Source of the DNA: Escherichia phage vB_ESM-pEJ01
DNA length: 64,000 nucleotides
Strand: one strand, 5' to 3'
Sequence record: OP114734.1
Under the pieces are notes generated by a model. That model was not told the DNA's origin. It saw only the letters and a program-made list of their open reading frames with translations, and made no database searches. Every line of letters begins with the position of its first letter. Within the stretch, counting starts at the first letter, position 1. The position numbers and the translations under genes were made by a program. Shown in pieces: positions 2,144 through 45,613 of the stretch.

Positions 2144-2463
2144 TTAGTAGCCTCCTTTAATTCTTCGGTAAACTCCTTAAATGAGTCATTAAGCTGTTTC
2201 TCTACCAACTTGGGTTTTTGTGCTACTACATAGCCTCGTGTAGCGTCTTTCATTGCTTTGTTTTGTTCTTCTGCAAACTTAGTTCTTATTCCGTACATCT
2301 CCTTTTGTAGTGAGTCTACGACCTTCATCTTCTCATCTGTCTTTTTCTTATACTCTGTAAATTCCTGATTCAGTCGATCTACCTCCTTTTTATTTTCCCA
2401 CCACATATTTCCACCTACCCCCAGCAACACAGAGATGATAACAATGTATACCAGCTTTGACAT
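2140..2463 (-). CDS. i-spanin-like protein (N-terminal TM plus coiled coil)
   Basis: 107 aa from MSKLVYIVIISVLLGVGG; single N-terminal TM then charged coiled-coil region; start re-set to ATG at 2463 to avoid overlap with rnlA. Confidence 0.4.
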   Translation of the reverse strand: MSKLVYIVIISVLLGVGGNMWWENKKEVDRLNQEFTEYKKKTDEKMKVVDSLQKEMYGIRTKFAEEQNKAMKDATRGYVVAQKPKLVEKQLNDSFKEFTEELKEATK

Positions 2464-14088: not shown

Positions 14089-14685
14089 TTAATTGCTTGT
14101 CAATACTTTATCAATTATATCTAACAGTTTTGGCTTTCTATTTTCAAATTCTAACATCTCTTCGGGAGAAATGTCAACTACTTCTGTTTTGTTGAAAAAG
14201 TTTGGGTCTATAGCATCAGCAACAAAGTTTCTCGCAAGTGCTGCCGCTTTCTCATGAACATATATTCCCAAATATATCAACTTCTTTCTTTCGACCTGAA
14301 TATTGGCAACATATTTACCATCTCGTTTATAAAGACTAACACCGATATATTCAGACGATCGACCTTTCTGTTTACCCATATTTCTTGAGTTTTGTTGCTC
14401 GTTCGCATCTCTCAAGTTTTCAATCCGATTATCTGTTATAATTCGGTTAACATGGTCAACGTATTTTGGCATGTATCCATGATGCATAAAGAAAATTATT
14501 CTATGCTCTTTATGATGTTTACCATCGATACACACCAATCTGTATCCATGACTAGGATTAACTCCACCCGCTCTAGATCCGACTTTATGCTTTCGGTTTG
14601 TCGATATCTTGCGAATCAGCTTACCGTTATCATATTTAAAGAGTTCATGACAACGAGCATACAATTCAGGATCATATGTTTTCAC
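14089..14685 (-). mobile_element. freestanding HNH homing endonuclease with AP2-like DNA-binding domain
   Basis: 198 aa; HNH core ...KEHRIIFFMHHGYMPKYVDHVNRIITDNRIENLRDANEQQNSRN followed by YIGVSLYKRDGKYVANIQV AP2-like module; inserted between genes 32 and 59. Confidence 0.8.
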
Positions 14686-17634: not shown

Positions 17635-18216
17635 TCATCCTCTTTTTGGAAAATTTAAATAAGCATACTCGCCAACTATTTCATGTGCTGCACGGTCATA
17701 AGCCTTAGCCGCCTCAACTTCTGTCTCAAAGTATCCTAGATGTATATTCTTTCGATTGATAACAATATACGCCTTCCACGGCTTTTTCTTGCTTGGTGAT
17801 AATGATACACCTTTATATTTGCTATGGCAAGCCTTTTTCTTTGAGACGTTAAACTGATTTTGCTGTTCGGTTGCTTCTCTCATGTTTGACGGTCTATTGT
17901 TAGTTTTGTCTTGGTCTATGTGATCTATTCGTTCAACCTGAGTACCATACTCTAAAAACCAGACAACTCTATGTACAAACAGATTAAGTTTATGACCATT
18001 GTTGTAAAATGTAAAGTATAAATATCCTTCTTTATGGAGACATACCCTTACCACATCACCTTTTTTGTATATGGACCCTTCTTTTCGGAATCCAGCAGCT
18101 ACAGAATCCTTTAAATGGTATAATATTCCATCGACATGATAGAATCTACCTTTTATCGCTTTCTGTGTCTCGATATCCCAAAATTTTGTTTTTGCCACAA
18201 CAAACACCTCACACAA
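17635..18216 (-). mobile_element. freestanding HNH-AP2 homing endonuclease
   Basis: 193 aa; VVWFLEYGTQVERIDHIDQDKTNNRPSNMREATEQQN HNH core plus YKGVSLSP...WKAYI AP2-like domain; paralog of 39976..40539. Confidence 0.8.
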
Positions 18217-18250: not shown

Positions 18251-21200
18251 ATGGCAGATTTTTCTCAACATTTCAAGGCCACCTTTGGCTTTGACGCTGG
18301 TAATGAAAAGGTCGTCAATGTAGCATACGCAGATAAAAACACATCAACGGATGCGGTCAACGTTGAATTTTTCAATTACCATAATGGTATTACTCAGTAT
18401 GACACAACTCGCGGTTATGATCAATACGGAACTACAATCTATCAAAACCGTCCGTATTATGCAAAAGAAGATATCACAAAGCCAGCAGGTGATTTTGACC
18501 CGACTAAATGGCAAGCACTGCGCACGGACCCACGTTGGGATTATGTTGCAGCAACTTCCGGCGATACTCCTTTAAAGTCTGGTGATTATATCGCAGCGGA
18601 CTGTCAGTTTGCAAACTTGACATTCTCAATGCCTACTAATCCGGCAGAGGGAGACACTATAACAGTAAAAGATATCGGTGGCAAGTGTGGTGTTAACGAA
18701 TTATCGTTCTTGAGTACAGGACATGAGTTTTACCATAACGGTAATGTGTACAACCGAAAATGGTATTGCACTACCCCGTATGCAATGAACTATTTCATCT
18801 TTGTTCGTAATCGTTGGCATGTTTATCAGACAGGAACAGAGCCACGCGGTGTGTACGCACAGCCAGCGATTGATGCTATTCAAATGCAGAATGGTGATCA
18901 GGTATTTCGTCGTAGTTCGTTGGGTAATATTACCTTAGTGCTTCCTAAGTTTGCCAACAATGGCGACATGATCCAGACTACAGACCTTGACGGATTAACC
19001 GCAACCAACCACGTTACGGTTAAAGTTCATGAGCACGCAGAAGAACAATCAATTGGCACGTCCGGTCTAAAAGAGATTATCGGTAAGCGTAGCGGTCATG
19101 GTGTATTCATCTTTGACAAGACGGAAAACTTATGGCGTTTGTGGGATGGTGATCAGTCTGTTCGTCTTAAACCGATCATCGATGACACTCGCTTGCAACC
19201 TAATAGCTATGTTGCTGTATTTGGTGATCGTGATGTTACTCTGACGCTGCCGACCAATGTCGAGCCGGGTGATCGTATTCAAGTTTCTATGCAGTATATG
19301 AACGGAAACCAGAATTGCCGTATTATCACCGCCACAGAGGATACAAAAATCCTTATGCAGAAAAACATGGTTCAGTTTCCTAAGCGTAGCGAGTACCCAT
19401 TCAATGGGACCGATACATGGACGGGAGTATCTGAATTGTCTTTCAACGCTGCAAATGATTATGTACCTTATGTGGAGTTCTCTTATTCAGAAGGTGATGA
19501 TGGTAAGAAATACTGGTTGGTGGCACATGCTCACCCGATTGTAGAACGAGTAGATCCGACTCGTAAAGATCGTGTTGGTGTAATTGCACTGGCTACCCAA
19601 ACTGAAACGAATAAAAACCATGAAGAGAATCCTAGCGACGAAGTTGCAGTAACACCAAAAATGCTGGCTAATAAAACCGCCAACGAAACTCGACGCGGTA
19701 TTGCTCGCATTGCGACTCAAGCGGAAACGCATCAAGATACTGGTTCCAACTTCCTGGATGATGTTATCGTTACGCCTAAAAAGTTAAATGACTGTGTTGC
19801 TACCGAAGCCCGTCGTGGTGTGATGGAAATTGCAACCCAGCACGAAACCAATGAAGGTTTAGACGATACCCGCGCTATTACTCCTAAGAAATTAGAAGAA
19901 CGTCGCGCTTCCGAAGATCTCGCTGGTATTGCTGAAATTGTTCAGGCTGGCGGCAGTGCTGCCGCTCGACGTGGCGAAGCTGGTACAGGGATCTATAACA
20001 TCAATGACCATGCTAAAATTGTTACGCCAAAAAACATCAACGAAGTCAAGGCGACCGAAACTTCCCGTGGTGTTGGCTATCTGGCAACTGACGCGGAAGT
20101 GCAAGGGGCTACAGAATCAACCCCGCAAGATGCTTTACTCATCACGACTCGCACGCTAACGAAACGTACTGCTACCGAATCGCGCACTGGTATCGCTGAA
20201 ATTGCAACTCAGGAAGAAACAAACTTAGGTCAAAGTGATAACCATATCATCACGCCTAAAAAGCTGCATACTCGCCGAGCAACGGAAACTTTACACGGTT
20301 TAGCAGAAATTGCAACTCAACCGGAGTTTGACGCAGGTCGTGACGATTCTCGCATTTCTACCCCATTGAAGATTAAAACCTTCTTTGAGAATGCACAGCG
20401 TTTGAAAGTAGATCCGACTCAGGGGCTTAACCTTACTGGTGATTTGTGGCAAGGTATCATGATCAGCGGTCTGGATGCAACCGAAGACACAAAAGGTGTC
20501 GCTAAAGTTGCGACTACTCAGCTTACTGACGCTGGTCAAGATGATACTACAATCATCACGCCTAAAAAGCTGCAAGGCAAGAAGGCCACCGAAGGTAAAG
20601 AAGGCATTATCCGAGTTGGTACTCAAGCCGAAACCGTGGCTGGTATTATGGACAATGTAGCAATTTCTCCGAAGAACTTCAAATATGTTGTTCAGACAGA
20701 GGATACATGGAAAGCAACCGAAGCGCGTCGTGGCTTCTTGAAAGTTGCTACTCAGGAAAACTGTTTTGTTGGTGATAATCTGCAAGGTTCTACTCAAGAA
20801 CTAGGAAACTACCAGCATGACGGAATTGCTGTTACCCCTAAAGGATTAAACTACGCACTTGCTAATTTCTTACCTAAGATGGCAACCGCTCAGAATAGTT
20901 TGAAATTAGGTAACGTAGAGGCCGCTAAATGGGCGCGTAGAGACATTGACCAGACCATAGAGAGCAATTACACGTTTAATAAAAACGTTAACGTGAAGGG
21001 CGATTTAGAGTGCTTAAAATCAGGTTCCTTTGAAACTCTGTCTGTGACTAAGAACTCGACCGATGTTCCGAGTAATGGTCATCTGGTGTTGGGTGAGCGT
21101 GGAGTTGACGGTCACACCGGAATTACTCTGCATGGCACAACCGCATCGGAAGGCATGAAAAACTCTTGGTCTATTATCGTTGGTGGTACTGGAACAGCGC

Positions 21201-21991
21201 AAGTTGTTGATAGTGATGCTATCGCTTTCGGTAAAATCAATGATGGTGGAGTCGTTCAGCATTACGCCTTTGCTATGAAACACAATGGCGATGTGACAGC
21301 ATATAGAGACTTTATTGCAGGTCGTAACCTGTATGCGAAACAAGGCGGGTTATACATTGTTGACCAGTCTAATCCGGCAATGACTCGTTCCCCAGATGGT
21401 ATGCTGAATATCGGTCACGGTGGAAGTGTTAACATCAAGGCAGGTCATCAAACGTTAACTACAGAGATCGCCGGACAGAAATATCAGATCGTACACGCAG
21501 GAAACGCTGACGAAGTTCTTAACCGTCAGTTTGTTAAGAATGCTGGCGATACAATGGTCGGTAAGCTGACTATGGATAATGCGCCTATTGTTTCCGTTAA
21601 GCATGAAGCTAGCGCGGCAACCGCTCCGGCAATCGGTAACATCGGTTTCTGGAATATGCGAGTTACTACCCAGAACATCAAAGAAACTTATCCAGAGAAG
21701 AAAAACGGTACTCTGATGCAATGGGGTACTGACGCGGACGGGCTTACCCAGCTTTGGTCCCCTGATGGTACTCATAAACATTATATCCGTTCCGGTACTG
21801 GTGGTCAATGGACAGCATGGGGTGAAATTTACACCAAACAGAATAAGCCTACCGCTCAGGAAATCGGGGCAGTAGTTGCAGAAGGTGGTTTAATGAACTC
21901 TATGACGGTTCGTGATTGGATCAAAGTTGGTAATGTTAAAATCATCGCCAATAATCTGACTCGTACCGTAGACTTTATCTGGGAAGACTAA
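18251..21991 (+). CDS. 34: long tail fibre proximal subunit gp34
   Basis: 1246 aa; colinear with remembered T4 gp34 including repeated ...ITPKKL...ATE.RRG... motifs and C-terminal ...VDFIWED. Confidence 0.93.
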   Translation: MADFSQHFKATFGFDAGNEKVVNVAYADKNTSTDAVNVEFFNYHNGITQYDTTRGYDQYGTTIYQNRPYYAKEDITKPAGDFDPTKWQALRTDPRWDYVAATSGDTPLKSGDYIAADCQFANLTFSMPTNPAEGDTITVKDIGGKCGVNELSFLSTGHEFYHNGNVYNRKWYCTTPYAMNYFIFVRNRWHVYQTGTEPRGVYAQPAIDAIQMQNGDQVFRRSSLGNITLVLPKFANNGDMIQTTDLDGLTATNHVTVKVHEHAEEQSIGTSGLKEIIGKRSGHGVFIFDKTENLWRLWDGDQSVRLKPIIDDTRLQPNSYVAVFGDRDVTLTLPTNVEPGDRIQVSMQYMNGNQNCRIITATEDTKILMQKNMVQFPKRSEYPFNGTDTWTGVSELSFNAANDYVPYVEFSYSEGDDGKKYWLVAHAHPIVERVDPTRKDRVGVIALATQTETNKNHEENPSDEVAVTPKMLANKTANETRRGIARIATQAETHQDTGSNFLDDVIVTPKKLNDCVATEARRGVMEIATQHETNEGLDDTRAITPKKLEERRASEDLAGIAEIVQAGGSAAARRGEAGTGIYNINDHAKIVTPKNINEVKATETSRGVGYLATDAEVQGATESTPQDALLITTRTLTKRTATESRTGIAEIATQEETNLGQSDNHIITPKKLHTRRATETLHGLAEIATQPEFDAGRDDSRISTPLKIKTFFENAQRLKVDPTQGLNLTGDLWQGIMISGLDATEDTKGVAKVATTQLTDAGQDDTTIITPKKLQGKKATEGKEGIIRVGTQAETVAGIMDNVAISPKNFKYVVQTEDTWKATEARRGFLKVATQENCFVGDNLQGSTQELGNYQHDGIAVTPKGLNYALANFLPKMATAQNSLKLGNVEAAKWARRDIDQTIESNYTFNKNVNVKGDLECLKSGSFETLSVTKNSTDVPSNGHLVLGERGVDGHTGITLHGTTASEGMKNSWSIIVGGTGTAQVVDSDAIAFGKINDGGVVQHYAFAMKHNGDVTAYRDFIAGRNLYAKQGGLYIVDQSNPAMTRSPDGMLNIGHGGSVNIKAGHQTLTTEIAGQKYQIVHAGNADEVLNRQFVKNAGDTMVGKLTMDNAPIVSVKHEASAATAPAIGNIGFWNMRVTTQNIKETYPEKKNGTLMQWGTDADGLTQLWSPDGTHKHYIRSGTGGQWTAWGEIYTKQNKPTAQEIGAVVAEGGLMNSMTVRDWIKVGNVKIIANNLTRTVDFIWED

Positions 21992-21996
21992 TTAAA

Positions 21997-22012
21997 GGGG
22001 GCGAAAGCCCCC
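21997..22012 (+). other. stable GNRA-loop hairpin GGGGGCGAAAGCCCCC between genes 34 and 35
   Basis: same 16-mer as 9964..9979 but in the opposite genomic orientation; no following T-run. Confidence 0.5.
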
Positions 22013-22024
22013 TATGGGGTTATT

Positions 22025-23164
22025 ATGACACAAGATATAGAATTACGCAACACTGGAATTAGGTTTGCGCATTTCGACGAAGACTCTGCGACATTTACCA
22101 GCATTTCAGAAAATAACTCTGTGATGTATAAGCTGGAAGTGCGCGGATCTAATGCGGATTCTACCAAACCAGCAAGGATTAGATTTAATGGAGTGGAGAT
22201 CGTTGGCACTGGCTATGAAAATGGCCTAAATTTTAAAGTTCTTACTCCAACTGGACAACTACACGAAGAAAAGGTATTCTATGGTCGCGGTGCTGTTTTG
22301 GCAATGCGTGATTATCTTTCTTTGCTGAAAGGTGACTATATCATTGCGATGGCAACGCATGGAGAATTGTTTGCAGATCCGATCAGTGATGGTGTATTCT
22401 CTAAGCTGGGATCTGTATCATTCCCGAATCACATTTTGCTACAGCAAATGCCTCGTGTATCATATGCAGCAATTTATTCTACTAAAATGGGTAAAATTGT
22501 GTGCGAAGGGATGCAAGCAACTCACGGGGAAGGACAAGATTCATCTATACAAATTGAGAAAGTCTATGATACTATAGATGATCTTGCTATAACAGGAACA
22601 CCACAACGATTTTTAGATTATCCGGTTGAGTATGTTAGCGAAGATGCCGAACATTTCGAGCTAATACAATGGCCTCATGATGAGACCAGCGCCCCACTTG
22701 AGGATTTTAACATAAAGGCAGGTGACAAACTATCAATATCCTTTGAATTGTTCCGTGATAGTGCCGCAGCCGCAGCCAACGTAACAGCGCGTTTCTATCA
22801 CAACTACTTCACCGATGGACAATATCAAACTGGTGTTCGATACAATGCCAGCAAAAAAGACCAATGGGAAAAGTTTGAAGCCGTCTATACCGTACCGGAA
22901 GGAGTTGATAGTGTAGTAACTGGTTGTATCAGATATCCAACCAACTCCAATGAAGGTATTGTTAAAATTAGAAACATACTAATAACGCCGATCAGTGGAG
23001 TCGTCAAAACTACTGGTCCTACTTCATTTGGTGTTAATGGTGTTAGAACAACTCATATTCAGGATAACGGTGATTTTACTAACCCTGTAATGAGTCTTCT
23101 TAAACTACCCAGAGATAATAAACACATCACATCCAACAACTTTAAAGAGTTCGATGTTGATTAA
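22025..23164 (+). CDS. 35: long tail fibre hinge connector gp35
   Basis: 379 aa; position between 34 and 36; T4 gp35-like size. Confidence 0.8.
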   Translation: MTQDIELRNTGIRFAHFDEDSATFTSISENNSVMYKLEVRGSNADSTKPARIRFNGVEIVGTGYENGLNFKVLTPTGQLHEEKVFYGRGAVLAMRDYLSLLKGDYIIAMATHGELFADPISDGVFSKLGSVSFPNHILLQQMPRVSYAAIYSTKMGKIVCEGMQATHGEGQDSSIQIEKVYDTIDDLAITGTPQRFLDYPVEYVSEDAEHFELIQWPHDETSAPLEDFNIKAGDKLSISFELFRDSAAAAANVTARFYHNYFTDGQYQTGVRYNASKKDQWEKFEAVYTVPEGVDSVVTGCIRYPTNSNEGIVKIRNILITPISGVVKTTGPTSFGVNGVRTTHIQDNGDFTNPVMSLLKLPRDNKHITSNNFKEFDVD

Positions 23165-23174
23165 CATTTTTAAC

Positions 23175-23206
23175 AAGCCGATCCATGTGGTCGGCTTTAT
23201 TTTTAT
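23175..23206 (+). terminator. rho-independent terminator after gene 35
   Basis: hairpin AAGCCGA...TCGGCTT followed by TATTTTTAT. Confidence 0.6.
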
Positions 23207-23325
23207 ACAGTTGGTTAAATTGTAACCAAAACGAAGAAAGATCTTTAGAATAATAGAAAATTTGTTTCGGTTAAAAAATAGCCAGTGCCTACGGCACGTC
23301 GCGAAGCGATATTTTGTTAACATTC

Positions 23326-23333
23326 TATAAATA
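23326..23333 (+). promoter_or_regulatory. T4-type late promoter TATAAATA
   Basis: exact TATAAATA 34 nt upstream of gene 36 ATG. Confidence 0.6.
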
Positions 23334-23366
23334 CTCGGAACTATAACTAATTTTTGAGGTTACTTT

Positions 23367-24857
23367 ATGGCAGATTTGAAATATGGATCTACTGTAGGTG
23401 GATCTCCCATTTGGACGCAAGGAAACTTGACGATCCAGCCAGCAGGGGATCAGCTTTTCTACAAAGGTCATAAAATCTATACCGCTTTTGATAGACCTTC
23501 GGCTACCGATTTTGATGCTGTTAGTGCATCCGAAGGTGGCACATTTCAAAAGCAAGTTCATTTCGAGGAAGGTTTAAGCGTAGGTAGCGCATCGGCAGGT
23601 GAAACCAAAAAGAATGGTATCTTTAAAGGTCAGAGCGACGCTGCTAATTTTGACGGCGTAAGCTGGGGTTTGCATTCATGGAAGTCAATCGGCTTTGTTA
23701 ATGCCCGTGATGGCGTTATTATGGCGTATATTGACACCACAACGGGCGAATTTAAGTCTAAAGGGACTATCGAAGGGACAACCATTAAAGACACAGGTCA
23801 ACGCGTCTATAGCCCTGTTAATAAACCAACGAATAATGATTTGGATTTAGTTTCCCGTCGCGGTGATACTCTCTCAGGAACGTATAATTTAAACACTGTC
23901 ACTGTTAAACTATCGGTTGATTCGAAATTAATTGCAAGGGAACGTGATTTAATTAATTTTGATGCGACTAAGATCTATTATGGTAACGTTCTTGATACGT
24001 TGGTCTTCCGAAGTAAAGATGAGCCTACCATTTTTGTTAATGGCAAAGAAGGTCGTTTTTATCACACCAACAATAAACCAACTAAAGCCGATGTTGGGCT
24101 AGGCAATGTCACCAATGATGCACAGGTTAAACGTGCTGGTGATATTATGGAAGGTAACTTGCAAGCGCCTAGAATGTTGGCGACAAACGATCCTGCTGGT
24201 CCTAATGAATTGGTTCGTTTGAGCTACTTTGAGAGAAAATCAATGGTAGCAAATCCAACCATCATTGGAAACGTTGATTGGAACACTCTTATTAATCGCG
24301 GTATCTATCGTGTGGAAAATGCTGGGTCGGGTACTAATAAACCGTCTGATAGCTATTATAATGGCGTTTTGATGGTATATCGCCCAGAAGATGCGGTCGG
24401 TACTCGTCGAATTGTTCAGGTGTATTATCCTGAATCTATTGACCATCCGATGTGCTGGCGTTCGTGTTCTAATGAATCATGGACTGCATGGAACTATGTA
24501 GATCACCGTAAATTAGCCGATATTCGCTATGTTAACGTAACTGGCGATACCATGACAGGACCGTTAACTGTTCCGGCTGTAAACGGTGTTAGAACAGCTA
24601 AAACTAACTATAACGGGGATAACTGTTATGCGGCGTTAAGCGGTGCTGATGGTACTGCTATGATTCACCGCATTAGTGATATTAAAGGGACCGAAAAGCT
24701 GGGGATCACCCACGACTCAAAGGTCGTGTTTTTCCGTTCTCGAAACAATACTCAAACCGTGGACCGCTATCAGCTTTATCATGAAGGTAATAAACCTACT
24801 CCGGCTGATGTTGGAGCGGTTCCACTTAATGCGGTGATTGATTTTGGTACTTTCTAA
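23367..24857 (+). CDS. 36: long tail fibre distal-half subunit gp36
   Basis: 496 aa; N-terminus MADLKYGSTVGGSPIWTQGN matches remembered T4 gp36 start; longer than T4 gp36. Confidence 0.85.
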   Translation: MADLKYGSTVGGSPIWTQGNLTIQPAGDQLFYKGHKIYTAFDRPSATDFDAVSASEGGTFQKQVHFEEGLSVGSASAGETKKNGIFKGQSDAANFDGVSWGLHSWKSIGFVNARDGVIMAYIDTTTGEFKSKGTIEGTTIKDTGQRVYSPVNKPTNNDLDLVSRRGDTLSGTYNLNTVTVKLSVDSKLIARERDLINFDATKIYYGNVLDTLVFRSKDEPTIFVNGKEGRFYHTNNKPTKADVGLGNVTNDAQVKRAGDIMEGNLQAPRMLATNDPAGPNELVRLSYFERKSMVANPTIIGNVDWNTLINRGIYRVENAGSGTNKPSDSYYNGVLMVYRPEDAVGTRRIVQVYYPESIDHPMCWRSCSNESWTAWNYVDHRKLADIRYVNVTGDTMTGPLTVPAVNGVRTAKTNYNGDNCYAALSGADGTAMIHRISDIKGTEKLGITHDSKVVFFRSRNNTQTVDRYQLYHEGNKPTPADVGAVPLNAVIDFGTF

Positions 24858-24861
24858 TTTT

Positions 24862-24888
24862 AGCGGGGATTATCTCCCCGCTTTTCTA
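24862..24888 (+). terminator. rho-independent terminator after gene 36
   Basis: hairpin AGCGGGGA-TTATC-TCCCCGCT followed by TTTTCT. Confidence 0.55.
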
Positions 24889-24927
24889 AATAATATTATT
24901 CTAATAACCGTTTAAGGATTTTATAAA

Positions 24928-27834
24928 ATGGCAGATTTAAGCAGAATCCAATTTAAACGCACTAGCACTAAAGGTCGTAAACCGGATGCTAGTACGATGA
25001 ATCCGGGGGAATTGGCAATCAACCTTGCGGATCAATATCTTCTTACTAAAAATGATTCCGGTACTATTATCAATTTAAGTTGTCCTCCGGTTTATGACCG
25101 CGATGTTACAATGGCGGGTAAGGTTAAAGGTAATAATTATATCTTAAGTAAAACCGCTAACTATCTGGAAGATCAGACAGCGAGAGATCTTAACTACTTT
25201 GGCGCTTTCCGTACCAATGGTCTTGATGGTCTTCTCGAACTCACGCTAAACGTTCCTCACTCTTCCGGTGTCCAGCATGGTCGAGGATTTACTTTCCAGT
25301 ATGGACATACTGGATCACGAGTAGAAACCTATGGATACAATAAAGAAGGTCAAAAAGCATTTAGCTATAAAATGTATCACGAAGGTGATAAACCTACTCC
25401 CTCAGAATTGAACGTTTATAGCAAACAAGAAATTGACAGAATGTTTATTAAAAACGTTAAAATGTCTGTTCCTTCCGGTGACGCAACTCGTGGTTACTTT
25501 AAGATCGCGACCGCAATGATTCCGCAGAATGGTCGAATGGCATTTTTACGGATTTACGGCGGAAACGGATATAATGTTAACTCCTACGATCAGGTGGATT
25601 TCCTTGAAATTGTGATTCGTGGTGGTAATAATAACCCTAAAGGTGTTAGTATTGCTGCATATCGTCGTAATTCTTTGAACGTCCATGAAGTATTTGCAAT
25701 TAATACTTCCGGTGATAACTATGACATTTATGTTAACTATGGTCGTTACACCGATAACGTTATTGTAGAGTTTGGAAAAACTGTTGATGTTGCATTGACT
25801 GTTCACGATGTTCCTGAATTTTCGGCGACTAAACCCGCAACCGGAACTAAATTTGATGCTCGTGTTATTACGATGTTCAACACCGAAAACAAAGCCGGAA
25901 CGTTGATGTTTGATAATAACGGTCAAGGAACATATGATATTATCAGCTTGAATAACTCGACTGATAGCAATAAAAAATATCTTCGTAAGTTTCGTAGCAA
26001 ATCCGCAGAAACAATATGGCATGAGGTTGTCGAGGGTAGCGTATATCGTTTAGCTACTGGTTTTACTGATACAGCGGATCAATTAAAAATTGATTTTAAT
26101 GGTGTTACTGTAAACCGCCTTTTTGTTAAGGGTAATAACGCTATTAGAATGGAACGCCGCGACGGGCAAAGTAACTATATCGAATTCTTTGATTATCGTT
26201 CTGGTGCTAATCGTCGTCAGGGTTATCTAGGTTATGGTGATGGTACTACTAACACTGTACAGTTAGTAAATGAATTAACGGAAGGTAATAACTCTGTAAG
26301 ACTGGATGAGAACGGTCAAGTTTCATTATCCACAGGTAAAACAAAAATTGTATACACAAACGGCGAATATGTTGCTGCATACGCTAACGCATTCCGTATG
26401 ATCTACGGAAACTATGGTGCATTCTGGCGTAATGATGGTGGTAAAATTTATCTTCTGTCTACTGCCGAAAATGATAAATTTGGTAGCTGGAACGGCAACC
26501 GACCATTCATTTATTATTTGACTACCGGTAAAGTTACTTTAGGTGGTGATGGTAACGAAGGTGCATTAGTTCTCGAAAGAGATAGCCGTGCGGCTAGATT
26601 TGCAGGTGACATTTACGTCGGTAAAGGAATGCTAACCTTTGATGCTGGTCGATTAAATTCCCGCGATTACTTCCGGTTTAACCATTGGGGCGATAGCAAT
26701 AACGGTCGCGATAACATCCTACAGATTGAAGACAGTCAGGGCGCACATTTTATCACTGAACGTGCTATGGGTACTGGTAACATAACAGCACGTTTTAAAG
26801 GCTTTGTACGTGTAGAATCTGGTGAAATTGCATTTGATGCTAATCGGGGGTCGCAGTCTCAATTTACCTTACATACATGGGGTAACGAGCAACGCAAACA
26901 GGTTTTTGAATGTAAGGATGCTACAAGTTATCACTGGTATACTGAACGTACTCAGGGTGGCACTGGACCTATTCTGTTCTCTATGGCGGGTAGTCTAAAC
27001 GTTGGTAGCAATATCACAACAACTGGTGCTGATATTACGTTTAAACGCGCTGGCAATAAGCACATCTGGTTTAGAGATCCAGACGGTTTAGAGTTAGGCT
27101 TGATGTACTGCGATGATGCTGGTGTTATTCGCTTCCGTGGTCAGAAACAAGCCCAGGCGTGGAAACTTGCGGATAAGATGATTCATCTTGAATCTGGTAG
27201 CGTCGGCGGGTCTGATAAAGGTTTGATTCGTGGTAGTGTTGCTGGTGGTAGTTGGGCTGGCTGGCGTGACCGTGCTTCCGGTTTACAAGTTGATTGTCCT
27301 CAATCAACCAATTCCGCTCATAACATCTGGAAAGCTACTCATTGGGGTCAATATCATATTGCGGCAATGGGTGTACACGTTCCTGATGGTACTATCGGAA
27401 ATGCTATGGTGCGTATGCACGTACACGATGCAACTTTTGACTTTAGCGCAACTGGTGATTTCCAAGCAGGTCGTAACGGTAATTTTAACGATGTTTACAT
27501 TCGCTCTGATGCTCGCCTGAAAATCAATAAGGAAGAGTATAAGGAGAATGCCACCGATAAAGTTAATCGCTTGACGGTATACACCTATGACAAGGTTAAA
27601 TCTTTAACCGACCGTACTGTCATTGCCCATGAAGTTGGCATTATCGCACAGGATCTTGAGAAAGAATTGCCGGAAGCAGTAACAACTTCTAAGGTTGGCG
27701 ATCCAGATAAACCAGAAGAGATCTTAACAATTTCTAACTCTGCTGTCAACGCTCTTTTAATTAAGGCGTTTCAGGAAATGAGCGAAGAATTGAAAGCCGT
27801 TAAAGCTGAACTAGCGGAACTTAAAAAGAATTAA
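24928..27834 (+). CDS. 37: long tail fibre distal subunit gp37 with C-terminal intramolecular chaperone (S74-like) domain
   Basis: 968 aa; N-terminus IQFKRTSTKGRKPDASTMNPGELAINL matches remembered T4 gp37 start; C-terminal ~120 aa (ARLKINKEEY...coiled coil) resembles self-cleaving chaperone domains. Confidence 0.85.
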   Translation: MADLSRIQFKRTSTKGRKPDASTMNPGELAINLADQYLLTKNDSGTIINLSCPPVYDRDVTMAGKVKGNNYILSKTANYLEDQTARDLNYFGAFRTNGLDGLLELTLNVPHSSGVQHGRGFTFQYGHTGSRVETYGYNKEGQKAFSYKMYHEGDKPTPSELNVYSKQEIDRMFIKNVKMSVPSGDATRGYFKIATAMIPQNGRMAFLRIYGGNGYNVNSYDQVDFLEIVIRGGNNNPKGVSIAAYRRNSLNVHEVFAINTSGDNYDIYVNYGRYTDNVIVEFGKTVDVALTVHDVPEFSATKPATGTKFDARVITMFNTENKAGTLMFDNNGQGTYDIISLNNSTDSNKKYLRKFRSKSAETIWHEVVEGSVYRLATGFTDTADQLKIDFNGVTVNRLFVKGNNAIRMERRDGQSNYIEFFDYRSGANRRQGYLGYGDGTTNTVQLVNELTEGNNSVRLDENGQVSLSTGKTKIVYTNGEYVAAYANAFRMIYGNYGAFWRNDGGKIYLLSTAENDKFGSWNGNRPFIYYLTTGKVTLGGDGNEGALVLERDSRAARFAGDIYVGKGMLTFDAGRLNSRDYFRFNHWGDSNNGRDNILQIEDSQGAHFITERAMGTGNITARFKGFVRVESGEIAFDANRGSQSQFTLHTWGNEQRKQVFECKDATSYHWYTERTQGGTGPILFSMAGSLNVGSNITTTGADITFKRAGNKHIWFRDPDGLELGLMYCDDAGVIRFRGQKQAQAWKLADKMIHLESGSVGGSDKGLIRGSVAGGSWAGWRDRASGLQVDCPQSTNSAHNIWKATHWGQYHIAAMGVHVPDGTIGNAMVRMHVHDATFDFSATGDFQAGRNGNFNDVYIRSDARLKINKEEYKENATDKVNRLTVYTYDKVKSLTDRTVIAHEVGIIAQDLEKELPEAVTTSKVGDPDKPEEILTISNSAVNALLIKAFQEMSEELKAVKAELAELKKN

Positions 27835-27875
27835 GGAAAATTCCCAGGGAAGGGAACTACTAAGGAGAAACGGCT

Positions 27876-28115
27876 ATGGTCTATAATATCGTCATTGGTG
27901 CTTTGTCTAATTTCGGAATGAAATTATTGTCAAAGTTAATTAGTGAAAAGATGCTCACTAAAATTTTCTTCTATTGCGCTCGTCGTCTTGCGGCTTATAC
28001 CAATACGCCAATTGATGATCGTTTTGTGGAAGAACTTTATAAGGAGTTTAATAAAGATCAGTCAGAAGATAGTAACGAGCAAGATAAACCTAGTGATAGT
28101 CAACTACCTAAATAA
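27876..28115 (+). CDS. hypothetical small protein in the gene 38 position
   Basis: 79 aa; strong SD AAGGAG; hydrophobic N-terminus, acidic C-terminus; no resemblance to T4 gp38 noted. Confidence 0.45.
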   Translation: MVYNIVIGALSNFGMKLLSKLISEKMLTKIFFYCARRLAAYTNTPIDDRFVEELYKEFNKDQSEDSNEQDKPSDSQLPK

Positions 28116-28148
28116 GAGTACACTGTCATAGTTATCTTAGGGCATTAT

Positions 28149-28805
28149 ATGCAAGTTTCTGAAAAAGGGAAAGACTTTGCTATCTCAAATGTCCTGCGCG
28201 CTATTTTCACAACTAAAAGCACGGAGTTGCTCGTACTTCGTGTTTTTGCTGCCGTCGTGTTGTCCATATTAGCATTTGTCGTTTATAGTAAAAACGAGTT
28301 ATTTGCGCTTTATAAAGAGACTCGTTATGAGACTTATGCTCACATTCTCCAGGTAGAGAAAGACCGCAATTTTGATAATGCAGCACAGGAGCAGTTACAG
28401 ATAGTTCATGTGTCGGCTGATGCCGATTTTTCTGCTGTTTTTAGCTTTCGTCCGAAAAACCTAAACTATTTTGTTGATTTGGTGGCATATGAAGGAAAGC
28501 TACCGCATACGATCGATGAAAAGAATTTAGGCGGGTTCCCTATCAATAAAACGAGTGAAGAATATCGTAGGCATCTTTTAGGTAAATCATATTTTACCGA
28601 TAAAGATTTCCAGTATATTCCATCGAGGGAGAAAAAATTAGAGAATATCGATATAGGGTTTATGTATTCTTGTCCTATATTCAATCTCGATAATGTCTAT
28701 TCTGGTAGTATCGCCATTGCATGGAAGAATAAACCGGATATTGACATTGAGAATTTGGATACTCTTTGCAATCAATCTGCCAGAATCCTCGGAAGGATTA
28801 GATAA
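28149..28805 (+). CDS. t: holin
   Basis: 218 aa; LQIVHVSADADFSAVFSFRPKNLNYFVDLVAYEGKLP and C-terminal ARILGR match remembered T4 holin T. Confidence 0.9.
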   Translation: MQVSEKGKDFAISNVLRAIFTTKSTELLVLRVFAAVVLSILAFVVYSKNELFALYKETRYETYAHILQVEKDRNFDNAAQEQLQIVHVSADADFSAVFSFRPKNLNYFVDLVAYEGKLPHTIDEKNLGGFPINKTSEEYRRHLLGKSYFTDKDFQYIPSREKKLENIDIGFMYSCPIFNLDNVYSGSIAIAWKNKPDIDIENLDTLCNQSARILGRIR

Positions 28806-28810
28806 CTTAA

Positions 28811-28844
28811 AGGGGAAGCCTTTCGGCCTCCCCTTCTTTTTTAT
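28811..28844. terminator. bidirectional rho-independent terminator between convergent genes
   Basis: hairpin AGGGGAAGCC-TTTC-GGCCTCCCCT with T-run on plus side and A/T-rich tract on minus side. Confidence 0.6.
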
Positions 28845-29089
28845 TGGCGCATAGAAGCCCCTGAATCACATTTTGACGCTGTATGATGAAAACAGGTAGC
28901 GTACCAGTCATCGGCTTGTTTGTCTTCGTCAGAAAACGCGTAATTGCGTTGTATGCCGTTTTCTACTTTGACCAGTGCAATAGCTGTTTCTGGAAGATCA
29001 ATCAATCGGACAAAATCGCCATCTTCCCATTCTACACGAGCAATATCATAACCCATCTCAAAATAAACAATCGCTTGTTCTAATTTCAT
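28841..29089 (-). CDS. DUF2829-like small protein (candidate Tad2-like signal sponge)
   Basis: 82 aa; pattern ...FEMGYDIARVEW.DG.FV ... YAFSDEDKQADDWYA resembles the DUF2829 arrangement as remembered; last gene of the accessory island. Confidence 0.35.
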   Translation of the reverse strand: MKLEQAIVYFEMGYDIARVEWEDGDFVRLIDLPETAIALVKVENGIQRNYAFSDEDKQADDWYATCFHHTASKCDSGASMRQ

Positions 29090-29418
29090 TCTGGAAACTT
29101 CCCGTAAATGTTCTCTGCCAACATACGCGCATCGCTAATGATATCTTTCATGCTATGACCGTAGTGTTCAGCCATTGAGTTGACACAATCAACAAAGAAA
29201 TTATAACGGCGACGGTTTAAGATTTCTTCTCTGCTATAGTTTTCATATTTGACGGTCGAGTGTGCTTTCTCGATTGCCTTGATTGCTATATTGACTTCAT
29301 TGATAATGGTTTTAGCATTGTATGCGCCACGACGGATCAGGATATTTGTCAATTCTCTTGCAATATCTTGCAATTCTTCATATTCATGTTCAAACATAAT
29401 CAACCTCTCAAAATACAA
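29086..29418 (-). CDS. hypothetical protein
   Basis: 110 aa track ORF, tightly packed in island. Confidence 0.4.
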   Translation of the reverse strand: MYFERLIMFEHEYEELQDIARELTNILIRRGAYNAKTIINEVNIAIKAIEKAHSTVKYENYSREEILNRRRYNFFVDCVNSMAEHYGHSMKDIISDARMLAENIYGKFPE

Positions 29419-29421
29419 TCC

Positions 29422-29754
29422 TTACAGATGAAAACCTGTTACGATCACCGCATCGATCTTACCGCTAGGAATAAACGGTTCGCCCTCTTTTATTTCAACT
29501 TTGAATTGATGCCATTTCGCTAATACTTCTTCCGGTACACCCAGCGATTCGGCGTCTGCTTTAGTTTCATCCATAATCCAACTAGGCTGCATGAGAGCAT
29601 AGTTTACATAGTCCATTTCTGGGGTCATGTCATCAATGTTAATATATTTGCAGTTGACGCGTTTCAGAATTTCAAATTCTTTATTGTCAACCTGTACCAT
29701 GTATAATTCAGTAGTTTCTGGAATCAGTTCCCACACAATCAGTACATTTTTCAT
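29422..29754 (-). CDS. hypothetical protein
   Basis: 110 aa track ORF. Confidence 0.4.
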   Translation of the reverse strand: MKNVLIVWELIPETTELYMVQVDNKEFEILKRVNCKYINIDDMTPEMDYVNYALMQPSWIMDETKADAESLGVPEEVLAKWHQFKVEIKEGEPFIPSGKIDAVIVTGFHL

Positions 29755-29762
29755 AGTTCACC

Positions 29763-30131
29763 TCACTTAACAAAGATTTTCTTTAATGCTTTCAGGATCG
29801 TTGCTTCCGGCGCTTCTTCCGGTGGAGGAAGCAATTCTACCACTTCCTCTTCCAACTCGATATAGTCTACCAGATATTCTACATAGAATGCAAGTGCTTC
29901 CATGAAATTAGATGCTACATCCGATTCACCACAAGCGCCTACATGCATTGTATAAACATCACTGCGATCAAGTTTGTGGATGCTTCCCAGATAGTTTCGG
30001 TTATACCAGACTTCCCACACTTTCAGCTTTCCGGTTTTGGTTGCTGTTTTATAATCGGTTTCGTAATGATGCAATTGACGTTGCAAATCATTGATAATAA
30101 CACATTTTTCGTAATTGTTTTGAATTTCCAT
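29763..30131 (-). CDS. hypothetical protein
   Basis: 122 aa track ORF. Confidence 0.4.
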   Translation of the reverse strand: MEIQNNYEKCVIINDLQRQLHHYETDYKTATKTGKLKVWEVWYNRNYLGSIHKLDRSDVYTMHVGACGESDVASNFMEALAFYVEYLVDYIELEEEVVELLPPPEEAPEATILKALKKIFVK

Positions 30132-30654: not shown

Positions 30655-31413
30655 TTACTTGCAAACGTATTGATCTACATCAATTGCTCCACCGAATGTA
30701 GGATGACGTTTTTCAAATCGAATAGTTCCGTCGTTTGGTTCGAAAACGGAGTATTCATATAGATCTTTCTTGCCAACATTCTTATAAAACCCGCCTTTAG
30801 TCATAACGGTTTCTTGTACGTTTGCTTTGTGTACGTTGTATTCGTCAATGTATACAAAATCAACCATCTTCCCATTTTTAATGGTTACTTTAAGATCTCC
30901 TGGTTGATTTCCATATTTGGCATACAGTGGCGCTTCTTTAATTTTTGTGGAAATTCCATCTTTCATACTCCACTCATAACGAACGGTGCATTGATAGGTA
31001 AAAGTTTCGACCTTCGGTTCTTCCACCACTTTTTCTTCCTGTTTCGGTTGTTCTTCTTCAACCTTCGCAGAAGTCTCTGAATCGCTTTCTGACGCGGTTT
31101 CTTCTTTAGGTAATACATTCATCAAGTTTTGGATTTGAGCGTTGTATACAGCCTCCAGTGGCTGAATCTGCCCGATATTGATCATTGTATCACGAACAGT
31201 TTTATTCCAGTTGCGTTGCTCTTGTTTAAGAGACGGATCAATCTTAACAGCCTTAACATACACCTCATGAAGTTTCGAATCCAGTGCTGAGATTGACTCA
31301 TTAGCACAAATAAACTTCTCTGATTTGGTAGTGGCTTTAGCGCAATCAAAGGACGCAGCATTAGCACCGAAAGCAGTAGCGGAAATAACGATAGCAGCGA
31401 TAATGTTTTTCAT
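30655..31413 (-). CDS. secreted protein with LprI-like (DUF1311, lysozyme-inhibitor-like) N-terminal domain
   Basis: 252 aa; signal peptide MKNIIAAIVISATAFGANA; FDCAKATTKSEKFICANESISALDSKL...QRNW motif; SD GAGGAA and promoter 31448..31476. Confidence 0.5.
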   Translation of the reverse strand: MKNIIAAIVISATAFGANAASFDCAKATTKSEKFICANESISALDSKLHEVYVKAVKIDPSLKQEQRNWNKTVRDTMINIGQIQPLEAVYNAQIQNLMNVLPKEETASESDSETSAKVEEEQPKQEEKVVEEPKVETFTYQCTVRYEWSMKDGISTKIKEAPLYAKYGNQPGDLKVTIKNGKMVDFVYIDEYNVHKANVQETVMTKGGFYKNVGKKDLYEYSVFEPNDGTIRFEKRHPTFGGAIDVDQYVCK

Positions 31414-36780: not shown

Positions 36781-38889
36781 TTAAAATTTAACATTCTTAA
36801 CCAGTTTCATAAAGTCTTGTGCGCGTTTGTCATTATGCAGAATACGATACCAGTTATCGACAATATCATACAGTAACGGGCTATTCTCTTTAAACTTCGC
36901 ACAAACTGCTTTAATTCGTTCGTTTGCTACCGTGAATTTTTCATCACAAATCTTTTTAGTTTCTTCGTCCATAACCCAACGAGTACGAAGGAGTAACTTG
37001 GAAACCTCTTTATTATAATGACGACCGTACAGTCTGTCAATAAATTCTGGAACACAGCGTTCTAGTTCATCGTCATGAAACAACATAGTGATCACACCCA
37101 GATATTCGCCATACCCCAGATGATTGGTCTTAACCTTCTTAGCCAGACCAGCCAGCTTACCGCGAACAAATTCTAGCGCACATTCCAATTGTTCGTCAAC
37201 GAGATATTTTTGTGTCTCGTTTCGAGTAATAATATACTTTGTTACCCCGAAGTAGTCAAGCGCCGTGTGTAATGTATTTTCACTATGGATCGATTTACGA
37301 CTACGGCTTTCGAATGCATCACCTACGCGGAACATGTGCAAGCCTGATAACTCGCGAATCTCTGCCGCTTTCATGTGATGGCTGGTTTTATGCCAACTGT
37401 CACCAATCTTTTCCATGATATACACGTTAGGCAGCTTGGGAGTAGCTTCACGTTGTGTACGCTCGGTCTTCTCCGGTTTAACTGCTTTAGCACGCAGATC
37501 ATCGGCCTCAGACACTTTAATCACGGTCATTTCAGAATCATCATAATACTGTTTGATGTACTCGAAAGTCTCCATATGTTTTTCGTTGCGCTGACGGAAC
37601 ACAAGTACCTTTTTATTGATGCCGTATTCCTGGACCATACCGTTAAGAGTCAGTGCACGCAGTTTCGGTTTATCGGTATCATCAATAAGACACGTAATAT
37701 CTTCTTTATGCATCCATACAAAATGCGTAATGTTGTATTGACTGCTAACGAAAGCAGGGCGCAATTTACTGATTGTGTGACGAGTACGATACAGAGTATA
37801 CACCTGACCTTCTACGTCATTAGGCGAATCTTTACCCGCATTCACAAACTTATTATAGATTGCTACCGGATCATCCCACTGCCCGATCTTACCCATCTTG
37901 CTAATAATATTGCGTTGAGTCGATGAATACTCGCTCATAAATTGCGCAAGTTTACGCTCTGTTTTAATGTTGGCGATCTTCTCTTTAACCTTTTCCAACA
38001 TCATTTCATTGATTTCTGCAATGCGTTTTTCGATGTTCGCTTTAGTCTCAATTGACAAGTGAACTTCTTCACGCGATGGCATCAGGTCCAGATCACCCAA
38101 CTCAAAATTAATGTAAATGGTCTGGTGCTGGCGGTTTACAGCTTCTAACCATGTTCCGCGAACATATTCATACGGGATCGGGTACTGGATCTTACCCATG
38201 ATTGCATATACCACATAGGAATCGTTATCACGCCCATTACAAACATAATAATTATCAAAGCTAGGGAAATAATTAATTTCGATTGCATTGATATTAGGTT
38301 TGTGTTCCCCAAAATGACGCAGTACAAACTGTGCTTCTCGATGCCATGTCTGAATATCTTTCTCTTTCACCGGAATAGTGATTTTCAGACCATTGTCTTC
38401 ATAGGTCGGTTCGTCGAAAATCTGCACCATTTTAGGCATAGAGTTTTGCACAAATGCCGTAAAGCCATAAGCGCGACCATTGTAATAGTTTACGATTGTA
38501 AAGGTGTCAGTGTAGCTATAAGCAGATTTCGCACCTAAACCAAAAGATCCGATATAATCATTAGTCTGGTCTTTGGTTGATTCAAAGTAAACCGTAAACA
38601 GTTGTTCTAATTCTTTCTTAGACGGAATACCAGTACCATAATCACGCACAGAAAAATACGGTTCGATTGCAGTCGGTAAATGAATATCAAACGGACGATC
38701 TAAGGTTCCTGCTTCTTTGTGAGTGTCGGTAGCATTACATGAATACTCACGGACGCAAGCACGCTCACAATATTGATAAGTGTTCTTAGAAAGCACCATA
38801 AAAGCCTTGCTACTTGCTTTCAGAGAAAAATCAACCGCACCGCTCAAGTCACTGCCAAATACTTCCTCATTATCGATATGCATTTTCAT
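36781..38889 (-). CDS. rIIA: rIIA protein
   Basis: 702 aa; N-terminal GHKL-type ATPase-like region; T4 rIIA-like size; directly upstream of rIIB. Confidence 0.88.
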   Translation of the reverse strand: MKMHIDNEEVFGSDLSGAVDFSLKASSKAFMVLSKNTYQYCERACVREYSCNATDTHKEAGTLDRPFDIHLPTAIEPYFSVRDYGTGIPSKKELEQLFTVYFESTKDQTNDYIGSFGLGAKSAYSYTDTFTIVNYYNGRAYGFTAFVQNSMPKMVQIFDEPTYEDNGLKITIPVKEKDIQTWHREAQFVLRHFGEHKPNINAIEINYFPSFDNYYVCNGRDNDSYVVYAIMGKIQYPIPYEYVRGTWLEAVNRQHQTIYINFELGDLDLMPSREEVHLSIETKANIEKRIAEINEMMLEKVKEKIANIKTERKLAQFMSEYSSTQRNIISKMGKIGQWDDPVAIYNKFVNAGKDSPNDVEGQVYTLYRTRHTISKLRPAFVSSQYNITHFVWMHKEDITCLIDDTDKPKLRALTLNGMVQEYGINKKVLVFRQRNEKHMETFEYIKQYYDDSEMTVIKVSEADDLRAKAVKPEKTERTQREATPKLPNVYIMEKIGDSWHKTSHHMKAAEIRELSGLHMFRVGDAFESRSRKSIHSENTLHTALDYFGVTKYIITRNETQKYLVDEQLECALEFVRGKLAGLAKKVKTNHLGYGEYLGVITMLFHDDELERCVPEFIDRLYGRHYNKEVSKLLLRTRWVMDEETKKICDEKFTVANERIKAVCAKFKENSPLLYDIVDNWYRILHNDKRAQDFMKLVKNVKF

Positions 38890-39975: not shown

Positions 39976-40539
39976 TCAACTAAAATTTAAAGATGCAAAC
40001 TCCCCGTGATGAATTTTTGCATATTCATCATATGCTCTAGCGGCTTCCTCCTGAGTAGCAAACGATCCTATGTATTTTCTGTATCCGTTTATCCTTATTT
40101 GTGCTTGCCACGGTCTTTTGCTAGATCCTTTGCGATGAGTAACACCATTATATATGCTCGTGCACCCGTCCATTTTCTTTTTATTGTACATGTTTTGTTG
40201 TTGTGTTGCCTCCCGTAAATTTGGTGGATTGTTGTTTTCTGGATTCCCGTCTATGTGGTCTATTACCTTAACCTGTGTTCCATATTCAAGAAACCAGACA
40301 ATTCTATGTACAAGATATGTAGATGTTCTCTTTTTAACCTTATTGTAAACATCTATTGCCAAATGACCGTAATTTAACTTTTTTGTTTTTACTTTATCAC
40401 CGACTCGGTAGAAATATCCCTCTGGTAGACCATTAAAAGACGGACTATTTGTTTTGTGATATAGAACACCTTCCGTGTGTTCAAATCTGCGTTTTAATTC
40501 CTCTTGAATTTCAGTATTCCAAAATTTCGCACTTTTCAT
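39976..40539 (-). mobile_element. freestanding HNH-AP2 homing endonuclease
   Basis: 187 aa; IVWFLEYGTQVKVIDHIDGNPENNNPPNLREATQQQN plus AP2-like YNGVTHR...WQAQIRINGY; ATG 1 nt after the gene 39 stop. Confidence 0.8.
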
Positions 40540-45299: not shown

Positions 45300-45613
45300 T
45301 ATCCTAAAATCCTCACCTTGCGAACACAGATAGTATTGAGTTCTCGCCGTACCCGTTCTTTTTCATATTCAGGAATTTTATATTCGATACCATCCCGAAC
45401 AATTTCAGAAGACCGGATTATGCCAAATTTTCGTTTAGGTACAACCTTGTATTTCGGTTCACCCGCCAATAGACTCTCACAATAATCTATCTGATCACAC
45501 ATTGACGCTAACGCAGCATCATGTGTTTCGCAAGTTAGGACGCGACCTTTCGCGTCCACTGAGTATTGAAAGAATCCGTCTTTATCACGATAACATACAG
45601 CAAATACATGCAT
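45299..45613 (-). CDS. hypothetical protein
   Basis: 104 aa track ORF upstream of dda. Confidence 0.4.
   Translation of the reverse strand: MHVFAVCYRDKDGFFQYSVDAKGRVLTCETHDAALASMCDQIDYCESLLAGEPKYKVVPKRKFGIIRSSEIVRDGIEYKIPEYEKERVRRELNTICVRKVRILG

Follow-up and report, generated by a model that had tools for sequence, protein, structure and literature searches.

In phages of the T2/T6 type, the C-terminus of gp37, the distal subunit of the long tail fibre, is cleaved and the shortened fibre is then capped by gp38 (Trojet et al. 2011, PMC3157838). The gp37 of RB49 also bears a self-cleaving chaperone domain, and here too gp38 caps the fibre (Golomidova et al. 2022, PMC9569957). In RB49 gene 38 is displaced and a small open reading frame (ORF) stands in its place, as reported by Trojet et al. 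(2011, PMC3157838), who cite Desplats 2002 for the displacement. RB49 and Felix O1 have also been listed among the phages that carry homologues of P18 of phage PM2 (Krupovic & Bamford 2007, PMC1950889). According to two later papers (Krupovic et al. 2007 via PMC6356626 and PMC9502842), PM2 uses P17 (gp k) to permeabilise the cytoplasmic membrane, while P18 is needed for disruption of the outer membrane. Here these systems are compared with a 64-kb stretch of 64,000 nucleotides (nt) from Escherichia phage vB_ESM-pEJ01 (OP114734.1), the whole of which is called the window, and in particular with the junction at which gene 37 is followed by an ORF of 79 amino acids (aa), termed ORF79, and then by the holin gene t.

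Judged by nucleotide identity, the window is part of the genome of a Krischvirus, an RB49-like, "pseudo-T-even" T4-type coliphage. When positions 27300-28200 and 18251-30000 were compared with a phage collection by megablast, both matched over nearly their full length, at 93-97% identity, the genomes of RB49, JSE, Phi1, AV108, FL37 and some 55 other Krischvirus. In all likelihood, the long-tail-fibre module here meets the lysis gene t in the way that is standard for such a phage, with an S74-type chaperone on gp37, a displaced gp38 gene, and a member of a lysis protein family in the vacated slot. Three parts of this explanation are already known: that gp37 of RB49 and of T2-type phages ends in an S74 chaperone, that gene 38 is displaced and a small ORF fills its slot, and that an RB49 ORF is homologous to PM2 P18. 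The features on which the argument turns are the following.

24928-27834, plus strand: gene 37, long-tail-fibre distal subunit, 968 aa (ORF list; phrog_1699, E 1e-188)
27502-27507, plus strand: predicted autoproteolytic site Arg859/Ser860, codons cgc tct (alignment of S860 and K865)
27505-27831, plus strand: C-terminal intramolecular chaperone domain of gp37, residues 860-968, 109 aa (Pfam, phmmer and tblastn)
27862-27867, plus strand: Shine-Dalgarno sequence AAGGAG, 8 nt before the ATG of ORF79 (sequence reading)
27876-28115, plus strand: ORF79, 79 aa (ORF list)
28149-28805, plus strand: gene t, T4-type holin, 218 aa (Phage_holin_T, E 2e-61; phrog_860, E 3e-88)

The C-terminus of gp37 and the displaced adhesin gene

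Gene 37 shares 93-97% nucleotide identity with the annotated gene 37 of RB49, AV108 and FL37, and its product is annotated as gp37 in all relatives. A reading made from the sequence alone, before any database search (the sequence-only reading), had proposed that about the last 120 residues of gp37 form a chaperone domain of the kind found on some phage fibres. A hidden Markov model (HMM) search bears out the domain: residues 860-919 (nt 27505-27684) match the Pfam family Peptidase_S74 (PF13884, "chaperone of endosialidase") at 44.8 bits (gathering score 22) and an expectation (E) value of 1.5e-11, and the match spans profile positions 1-58 of 58. The match is followed by a heptad-like terminal helix. 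The S74-type domain comprises the last 109 residues of the distal subunit, from S860 to the extreme C-terminus, and is shorter than had been proposed. The presence of an S74-type intramolecular chaperone at the end of gp37 is confirmed at the level of sequence. Homologous C-termini occur in 883 phage records, including those of T2, Ox2 and T5-like pb1 (tblastn with the gp37 C-terminus). When the C-terminal 268 residues alone were used for phmmer, they matched the gp37 chain of S16 (6F45_A, E 2e-4, residues ~852-965); the corresponding search of PDB sequences with full-length gp37 returned only a Gp34_trimer-type domain.

The domain begins, at nt 27505, with the motif S860-D-A-R-L-K865 (SDARLK), in which the lysine lies five residues past the serine. 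In an alignment with RB49 gp37, T2 gp37 and T5-like pb1 the columns S-D-x-R-L-K are invariant, which places the Ser/Lys dyad in register with those of T2 gp37 and T5 pb1. In T5 pb1 the scissile bond is Thr1263-Ser1264, Lys1269 activates the serine, and an S1264A mutant is uncleaved (PMC4690869). By homology, gp37 would be cleaved at the putative site Arg859-Ser860, and the putative released fragment would have 109 residues. The chaperone would thus first nucleate trimerisation and folding of the distal fibre, as expected from its homologues in K1F endosialidase, T5 pb1 and the gp37 of T2 and S16, and would then remove itself through autoproteolysis at Arg859|Ser860, dependent on Ser860 and Lys865. 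Folding of the gp37 trimer probably needs no T4-type gp38 chaperone; this is the normal situation in T2, T6 and S16, and not a new architecture.

The processed tip would then be capped by a T2-type gp38 adhesin whose gene has been translocated ~54 kb away, outside the window, and receptor recognition would depend on this gp38, as it does in T2, T6 and S16. The gp38 of RB49 (RB49p079, 258 aa, 45367-46143, "g38; similar to T2 and RB69 gp38 adhesin") contains glycine-rich runs, and its gene is located ~54 kb downstream of gene 37. With this protein as query, tblastn retrieved gp38 at no less than 80% identity from 70 records of the phage collection, and in every Krischvirus record among the matches listed gp38 is away from gene 37. 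In AV108, for example, whose fibre locus is 97% identical to the window, gp38 is at 123772 and gene 37 at ~70000, again ~54 kb apart. The gp38 gene of this lineage has therefore very probably moved elsewhere in the genome. The sequence-only reading had taken gene 38 to be replaced, a view that does not survive the finding of a T2-type gp38 so far from gene 37 in RB49 and its Krischvirus relatives.

The window itself stops short of the expected position. Its rIIA gene (36781-38889) corresponds to RB49 positions 1-2109, its end to about RB49 position 27,200, and gp38 is expected by synteny ~18 kb past that end. For this reason a tblastn search of the 64-kb window with RB49 gp38 gave noise only (best E 4.7), and no hidden gp38 was found within the window. 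The same result would be obtained if gp38 had been dispensed with and the tip of gp37, once freed of its chaperone, were itself the adhesin; indeed the S74-processed fibre of T5, pb1, binds its receptor directly (PMC4690869). Such an arrangement is extremely unlikely here, given that RB49 and its Krischvirus relatives encode the distant T2-type gp38, that RB49 host-range mutants carry the gp38 substitutions E230K and Y231S (Golomidova et al. 2022, PMC9569957), and that the displacement of g38 in RB49 is documented (PMC3157838). The earlier suggestion of a gp38-independent fibre assembly and adhesin architecture can probably be kept for assembly, in the sense that a T4-type gp38 chaperone is not needed, and is not supported for the adhesin.

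Three points weigh against this account of the fibre tip. An AlphaFold2 (AF2) single-sequence model of gp37 residues 781-968 has a mean predicted local distance difference test score (pLDDT) of 42.6 and is too poor to confirm an S74 fold, although the strand-then-long-helix pattern seen in it is compatible with one. Cleavage of gp37 in this phage is predicted from homology. Finally, a gp38 gene in this particular genome is predicted from its relatives, at a position beyond the window.

The gp37 of RB49-like phages should be annotated as carrying an S74 chaperone domain. The preferred account of a chaperone-processed tip capped by a distant gp38 also bears on the host range of these therapeutically popular phages, as their receptor-binding protein, gp38, would be encoded far from the fibre locus; host-range engineering or prediction from the 34-37 locus alone would miss it.

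Two fibre proteins show further peculiarities. Residues 452-529 of gp37 (26281-26514) match the C-terminal trimerisation domain of gp34 (Pfam Gp34_trimer, E 2e-26) as well as the gp34 structures 4UXE and 5NXF and the phage Mu tail-fibre protein S (5YVQ), a case of fibre-module mosaicism. The gp36 protein (23367-24857) has 496 aa, about twice the ~220 aa of the T4-type gp36 in Trojet 2011, and is equally long in RB49; its residues 57-140 give a weak match to Pfam Phage_T4_gp36 (23 bits, under the gathering score of 26).

ORF79 and the PM2 P18 family

ORF79 fills the slot between gene 37 and the holin gene t that is held by gene 38 in T2 (37-38-t). As the sequence-only reading had recognised, it is preceded by a strong Shine-Dalgarno sequence and is unrelated to gp38. 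With 61-100% identity across Krischvirus and related contigs, and with family members in at least 391 phage records, it has the conservation of a real gene and is not a chance ORF. It is a "hypothetical protein" in every database record examined. A blastp comparison with RB49 gp38 gave no match, and searches of the Pfam copy used returned no family at E<0.01 and, with the limit relaxed to E<10, nothing above noise; NCBIfam likewise gave nothing. The protein has two Gly in 79 residues, with no Gly-Gly run, and so lacks a glycine-rich motif. Together, the blastp, Pfam and glycine results place ORF79 outside the gp38-type adhesins and the tail-fibre chaperone or adhesin families of Pfam. A second annotation in RB49, "Dc5" (9620-9817 of the RB49 locus), starts at the internal Met15 of ORF79. 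Since the hydrophobic residues upstream of Met15 are conserved in all lineages of the family alignment, the longer, Shine-Dalgarno-preceded start is favoured.

Profile searches place ORF79 with P18 of PM2. ORF79 matches phrog_402, a family listed as of unknown function, with an E value of 5.2e-20, and PM2 gp l (P18, 51 aa) belongs to the same family (E 8.2e-14). A family HMM made from 22 diverse members aligns with the full length of gp l at 35.3 bits; the bit score is used here, as an E value against a two-sequence database is not meaningful. The Pfam family PF26925, "Phage_PM2_Gpl", is absent from the Pfam copy used, and ORF79 is linked to it through the precomputed annotation of relatives of 61-92% identity. 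Relatives were collected by an all-against-all HMMER search, which gave 20 representatives; homologue searches otherwise found few distant relatives, and tblastn with one distant family member (P0025) recovered only Krischvirus. Proteins of the family are helical and 50-90 aa long; a Glu is conserved behind the first helix, and the third helix is preceded by the motif T-x-T-x-x-D-D. All sequences of the 22-member alignment have D47, and at least 90% of them retain E24, T42 and D48. It is thus highly probable that ORF79 is a member of the PM2 P18/gp l family (phrog_402, PF26925). ORF79 is the sole member in the window, in which no second copy was found.

ORF79 is predicted to consist of three helices, with positive charge over the N-terminal two-thirds and an acidic tail. 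An AF2 model based on a 19-sequence alignment (pLDDT 66) contains helices at residues 2-21, 24-41 and 45-68, followed by a disordered acidic tail; the net charge is +5 over the first 45 residues and -6 over the last 34. The N-terminus, which had been called hydrophobic, is only moderately so: its highest Kyte-Doolittle mean over 19 residues is 1.31, short of the 1.6 usually required of a transmembrane segment, whereas several homologues reach 1.6-2.1.

The genomic neighbours of homologues were sampled at about 11 loci. Holin genes adjoin it here (holin T) and in PM2 (holin P17, gp k). Homologues directly follow a GH108 endolysin gene in Vibrio phage 1.090.B and in a metagenomic contig (L010), and in the Felix-O1-like Suspvirus and Kolesnikvirus the homologue adjoins a transmembrane and coiled-coil protein annotated as a holin (phrog_4038). 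The balance of these neighbourhoods, in a small sample, favours a late lysis-accessory role. In another contig (L011), a motif noticed on inspection suggested that a 137-aa protein upstream of the homologue is an M15-type endolysin; Pfam and PHROGs gave this no support, and the candidate was dropped.

The position of the gene can also be read differently, as that of a tail-fibre accessory, for instance one that helps the distal fibre to fold or attach, or gp38 to dock; its link would then be with the fibre gene and not with lysis. Homologues lie directly 3' of the distal tail or fibre gene in Krischvirus, Suspvirus and Kolesnikvirus, 3' of a tail-needle-knob gene in Lahexavirus, and within the structural module in Grimontviridae, and Trojet et al. 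(PMC3157838) offered the speculation that adhesins or chaperones could be encoded by the small ORFs found behind g37 in other T4-like phages. However, the founding member, P18, belongs to a phage that has no tail, and its phenotype concerns lysis (PMC6356626, PMC9502842); other homologues directly follow GH108 endolysin genes with no fibre gene adjoining; and lysis genes are usually found at the ends of late operons. In addition, the upstream tail or fibre proteins have unrelated folds (S74 here, a T4-type gp37_C needle domain in mistaenkt, Ig-like, and a needle knob), which makes a common fibre client unlikely. No S74 domain was found in the proteins upstream of homologues at the sampled loci outside Krischvirus, and the idea that ORF79 is a partner protein of the S74 domain was rejected for this reason. 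A fibre accessory function is therefore very unlikely, and we take the position that ORF79 is not a fibre component.

A second possibility is that ORF79 is a holin- or antiholin-like regulator in the inner membrane, which would affect the timing of lysis through holin T and would not disrupt the outer membrane. The adjoining holin genes here and in PM2 would suit such a regulator, as would the size and charged C-terminus, which recall those of small holins, and the N-terminal helix of the family can be hydrophobic enough for a membrane anchor (Kyte-Doolittle 1.6-2.1). ORF79 itself, with its maximum of 1.31, has no confident transmembrane segment, and PM2 gp l, by inspection, lacks a strongly hydrophobic stretch. 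Pfam and PHROGs gave no holin profile match for ORF79. T4-type phages already control T through RI and RIII, and RB49 has an annotated rI. Furthermore, in PM2 (PMC6356626, PMC9502842) the cytoplasmic membrane is assigned to P17 and the outer membrane to P18. Regulation of holin T by ORF79 is accordingly quite unlikely.

ORF79 is thus probably a late lysis accessory protein, and the evidence leans slightly towards an outer-membrane role for it in the lysis of this phage. In the proposed mechanism, ORF79 would be co-transcribed late with 36, 37 and t and would act as an accessory envelope-disrupting factor beside holin T, the endolysin and a spanin pair. Several observations speak against this proposal. 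The functional data on the P18 family come only from PM2, a tailless marine phage without spanins, and a full spanin pair is present here, so that an outer-membrane disruptor might be redundant. The N-terminus of ORF79 is under the hydrophobicity threshold for a transmembrane segment. Proximity to lysis genes is not universal in the family: in Grimontviridae and in Lahexavirus podophages the homologue is in the structural module, before a tail tubular gene and not near lysis genes, and in Krischvirus and the Felix-O1-like phages the gene immediately upstream of it is that of the distal fibre. In addition, the "holin" label of phrog_4038 is an unverified annotation.

For annotation, the assignment means that the ORF between 37 and t should be labelled a putative lysis protein of the PM2 P18/gp l family and not a gp38 substitute.

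Two observations concern sequences related to ORF79 in other settings. A 196-aa protein (P0018) has six tandem copies of YKYTDTPADKRSVDDLHKR, which match the TDTPxD..V..L segment of the ORF79 profile in six stretches (E 1e-9); it looks like an unrelated secreted repeat protein, and the likeness is most likely a coincidence at the level of the motif. In Hafnia phage vB_HpaM_SarahDanielle (MW749010, 86 kb) a tail-fibre C-terminus (85550-86113) is 57% identical to that of gp37, chaperone domain included, and a P18-family ORF at 1363-1524 would lie ~1.4 kb past the fibre end if the record is circularly permuted. Possibly, a module of fibre tip plus P18 is common to unrelated myophages.

The late transcript, the spanins and other genes

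The fibre genes upstream, together with the signals that would bound the transcript, are placed as follows.

18251-21991: gp34
22025-23164: gp35
23367-24857: gp36
23326-23333, plus strand: T4-type late promoter consensus TATAAATA (exact match, 34 nt 5' of the gene 36 start)
28809-28846, strand not assigned: GC-rich hairpin AAGGGGAAGCC-TTTC-GGCCTCCCCTT with one mismatch, followed by a T-run (sequence reading)

The consensus match before gene 36 is, from its position, likely to be the start of a 36-37-ORF79-t late transcript; TATAAATA has two matches in the window and is not enriched over shuffles. The hairpin, which is placed between gene t and the convergent minus-strand genes, is likely to be the end of the transcript. 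It was recognised by reading the sequence and is absent from the list produced by the terminator scan. As the scan found no promoter or terminator consensus between 37, ORF79 and t, these three genes are probably on one late transcript, a conclusion drawn from consensus matches only.

A complete two-component spanin pair of the T4 type is encoded near and upstream of pseT, at 1691-2514 on the minus strand:

2140-2463, minus strand: i-spanin with an N-terminal transmembrane segment and a coiled coil (phrog_739, E 9e-27)
1691-2023, minus strand: o-spanin with the lipobox ALSSC (phrog_812, E 5e-32)

The mechanical ORF calls for the two spanins (124 and 150 aa) begin further upstream than the likely true starts. 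Kongari et al. (2018, PMC6139136) assign RB49 to the T4 spanin family, consistent with the pair seen here. ORF79 lacks a lipobox, a periplasmic coiled coil and any spanin profile match in PHROGs; with the true pair located at 1691-2514, it was rejected as a spanin. In the same survey (PMC6139136) PM2, PaP3, P-SSM2, P-SSM4 and S-PM2 are listed as having no spanins, and it is to these phages that P18 homologues have otherwise been ascribed. P18-like proteins may therefore act alone on the outer membrane in some phages and as auxiliaries in RB49, Felix O1 and the phiEco32-like phages.

A bolder version would make the P18-like protein a third, spanin-independent factor of envelope disruption, non-redundant and widespread in tailed phages (phrog_402, at least 391 records). 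We consider this doubtful. Such a protein might push its cationic amphipathic helices into the outer membrane, or its invariant T-x-T-x-x-D-D motif might strip the divalent cations that bridge lipopolysaccharide, and it might in this way become essential for lysis at high Mg2+/Ca2+. In a more exotic variant, the recurrent place of the gene after distal-fibre or needle genes in four unrelated lineages of tailed phages may reflect a second role, linked to the virion tip.

Elsewhere in the window, four minus-strand genes at 14089-14685, 17635-18216, 39976-40539 and 51957-52733 comprise three paralogous, homing-endonuclease-like genes with HNH_3 and AP2 domains and a fourth ORF with an I-TevI-type DNA-binding domain. 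The I-TevI-type ORF lies between gene 41 and uvsX, a position at which RB49 has no gene of this kind. One of the HNH/AP2 genes is directly upstream of gene 34 and contains the other match to TATAAATA, at 18017. At 30655-31413, also on the minus strand, a 252-aa protein with a signal-peptide-like N-terminus has an LprI (lysozyme-inhibitor) domain (Pfam E 1.3e-5, with a score that passes the gathering threshold); the syntenic RB49 gene is of the same length (759 nt) and is annotated as a hypothetical protein.

Comparison with known systems

The fibre tips of T2, T6 and Salmonella phage S16 come nearest to this one: their gp37 is joined to a gp38 adhesin (PDB 6F45) and ends in an S74 domain homologous to that found here, with the SD-R-LK motif in common. 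In Tequatrovirus phages the 100 residues that precede the gp37 cleavage site are 60-66% identical to those here, and RB49 gp38 is 75-90% identical to the gp38 of phages of Tequatrovirus size, or T2-like phages; because of these identities the same tip-adhesin junction is expected. The present gp37 differs in that it also holds the Gp34_trimer-type domain at 452-529, and the locus differs from that of T2 (37-38-t) in that gene 38 is not beside gene 37 and an ORF of a lysis family is in the slot. The S74 chaperones of K1F endosialidase and T5 pb1 are likewise the C-terminal ~110-135 residues of a trimeric fibre and have the Ser and, five residues on, the Lys. The T5-like pb1 C-termini are 36-37% identical to that of gp37. 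However, the T5 pb1 chaperone domain is longer (133 aa versus 109 aa), and the processed tip of T5 pb1 is a receptor-binding domain, whereas the tip here is expected to bear a separate adhesin.

For ORF79 the closest described protein is P18 of the corticovirus PM2. The two share their profile families, an alignment over the whole of gp l, Glu24 and the T-x-T-x-x-D-D-like motif, and both genes adjoin a holin gene, gp l coming after gp k and ORF79 before t. P18 is shorter (51 aa versus 79 aa), with ORF79 having ~10 extra residues at the N-terminus and an acidic C-terminal tail of low model confidence. PM2 is listed as spanin-less (PMC6139136), unlike this phage with its Rz/Rz1-like pair.

Two other kinds of lysis protein have the task that is proposed for ORF79. 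The "disruptin" gp28 of phage phiKT is a phage factor that breaches the outer membrane at the last step of lysis; the likeness of ORF79 to it is one of charge and helix, its N-terminal 45 residues (+5) being predicted to be helical. The spanins (T4 PseT.3/PseT.2, lambda Rz/Rz1) also carry out the last step of lysis, the breach of the outer membrane, which is the step proposed for ORF79, but they differ from it in their lipobox, periplasmic coiled coil and spanin profiles.

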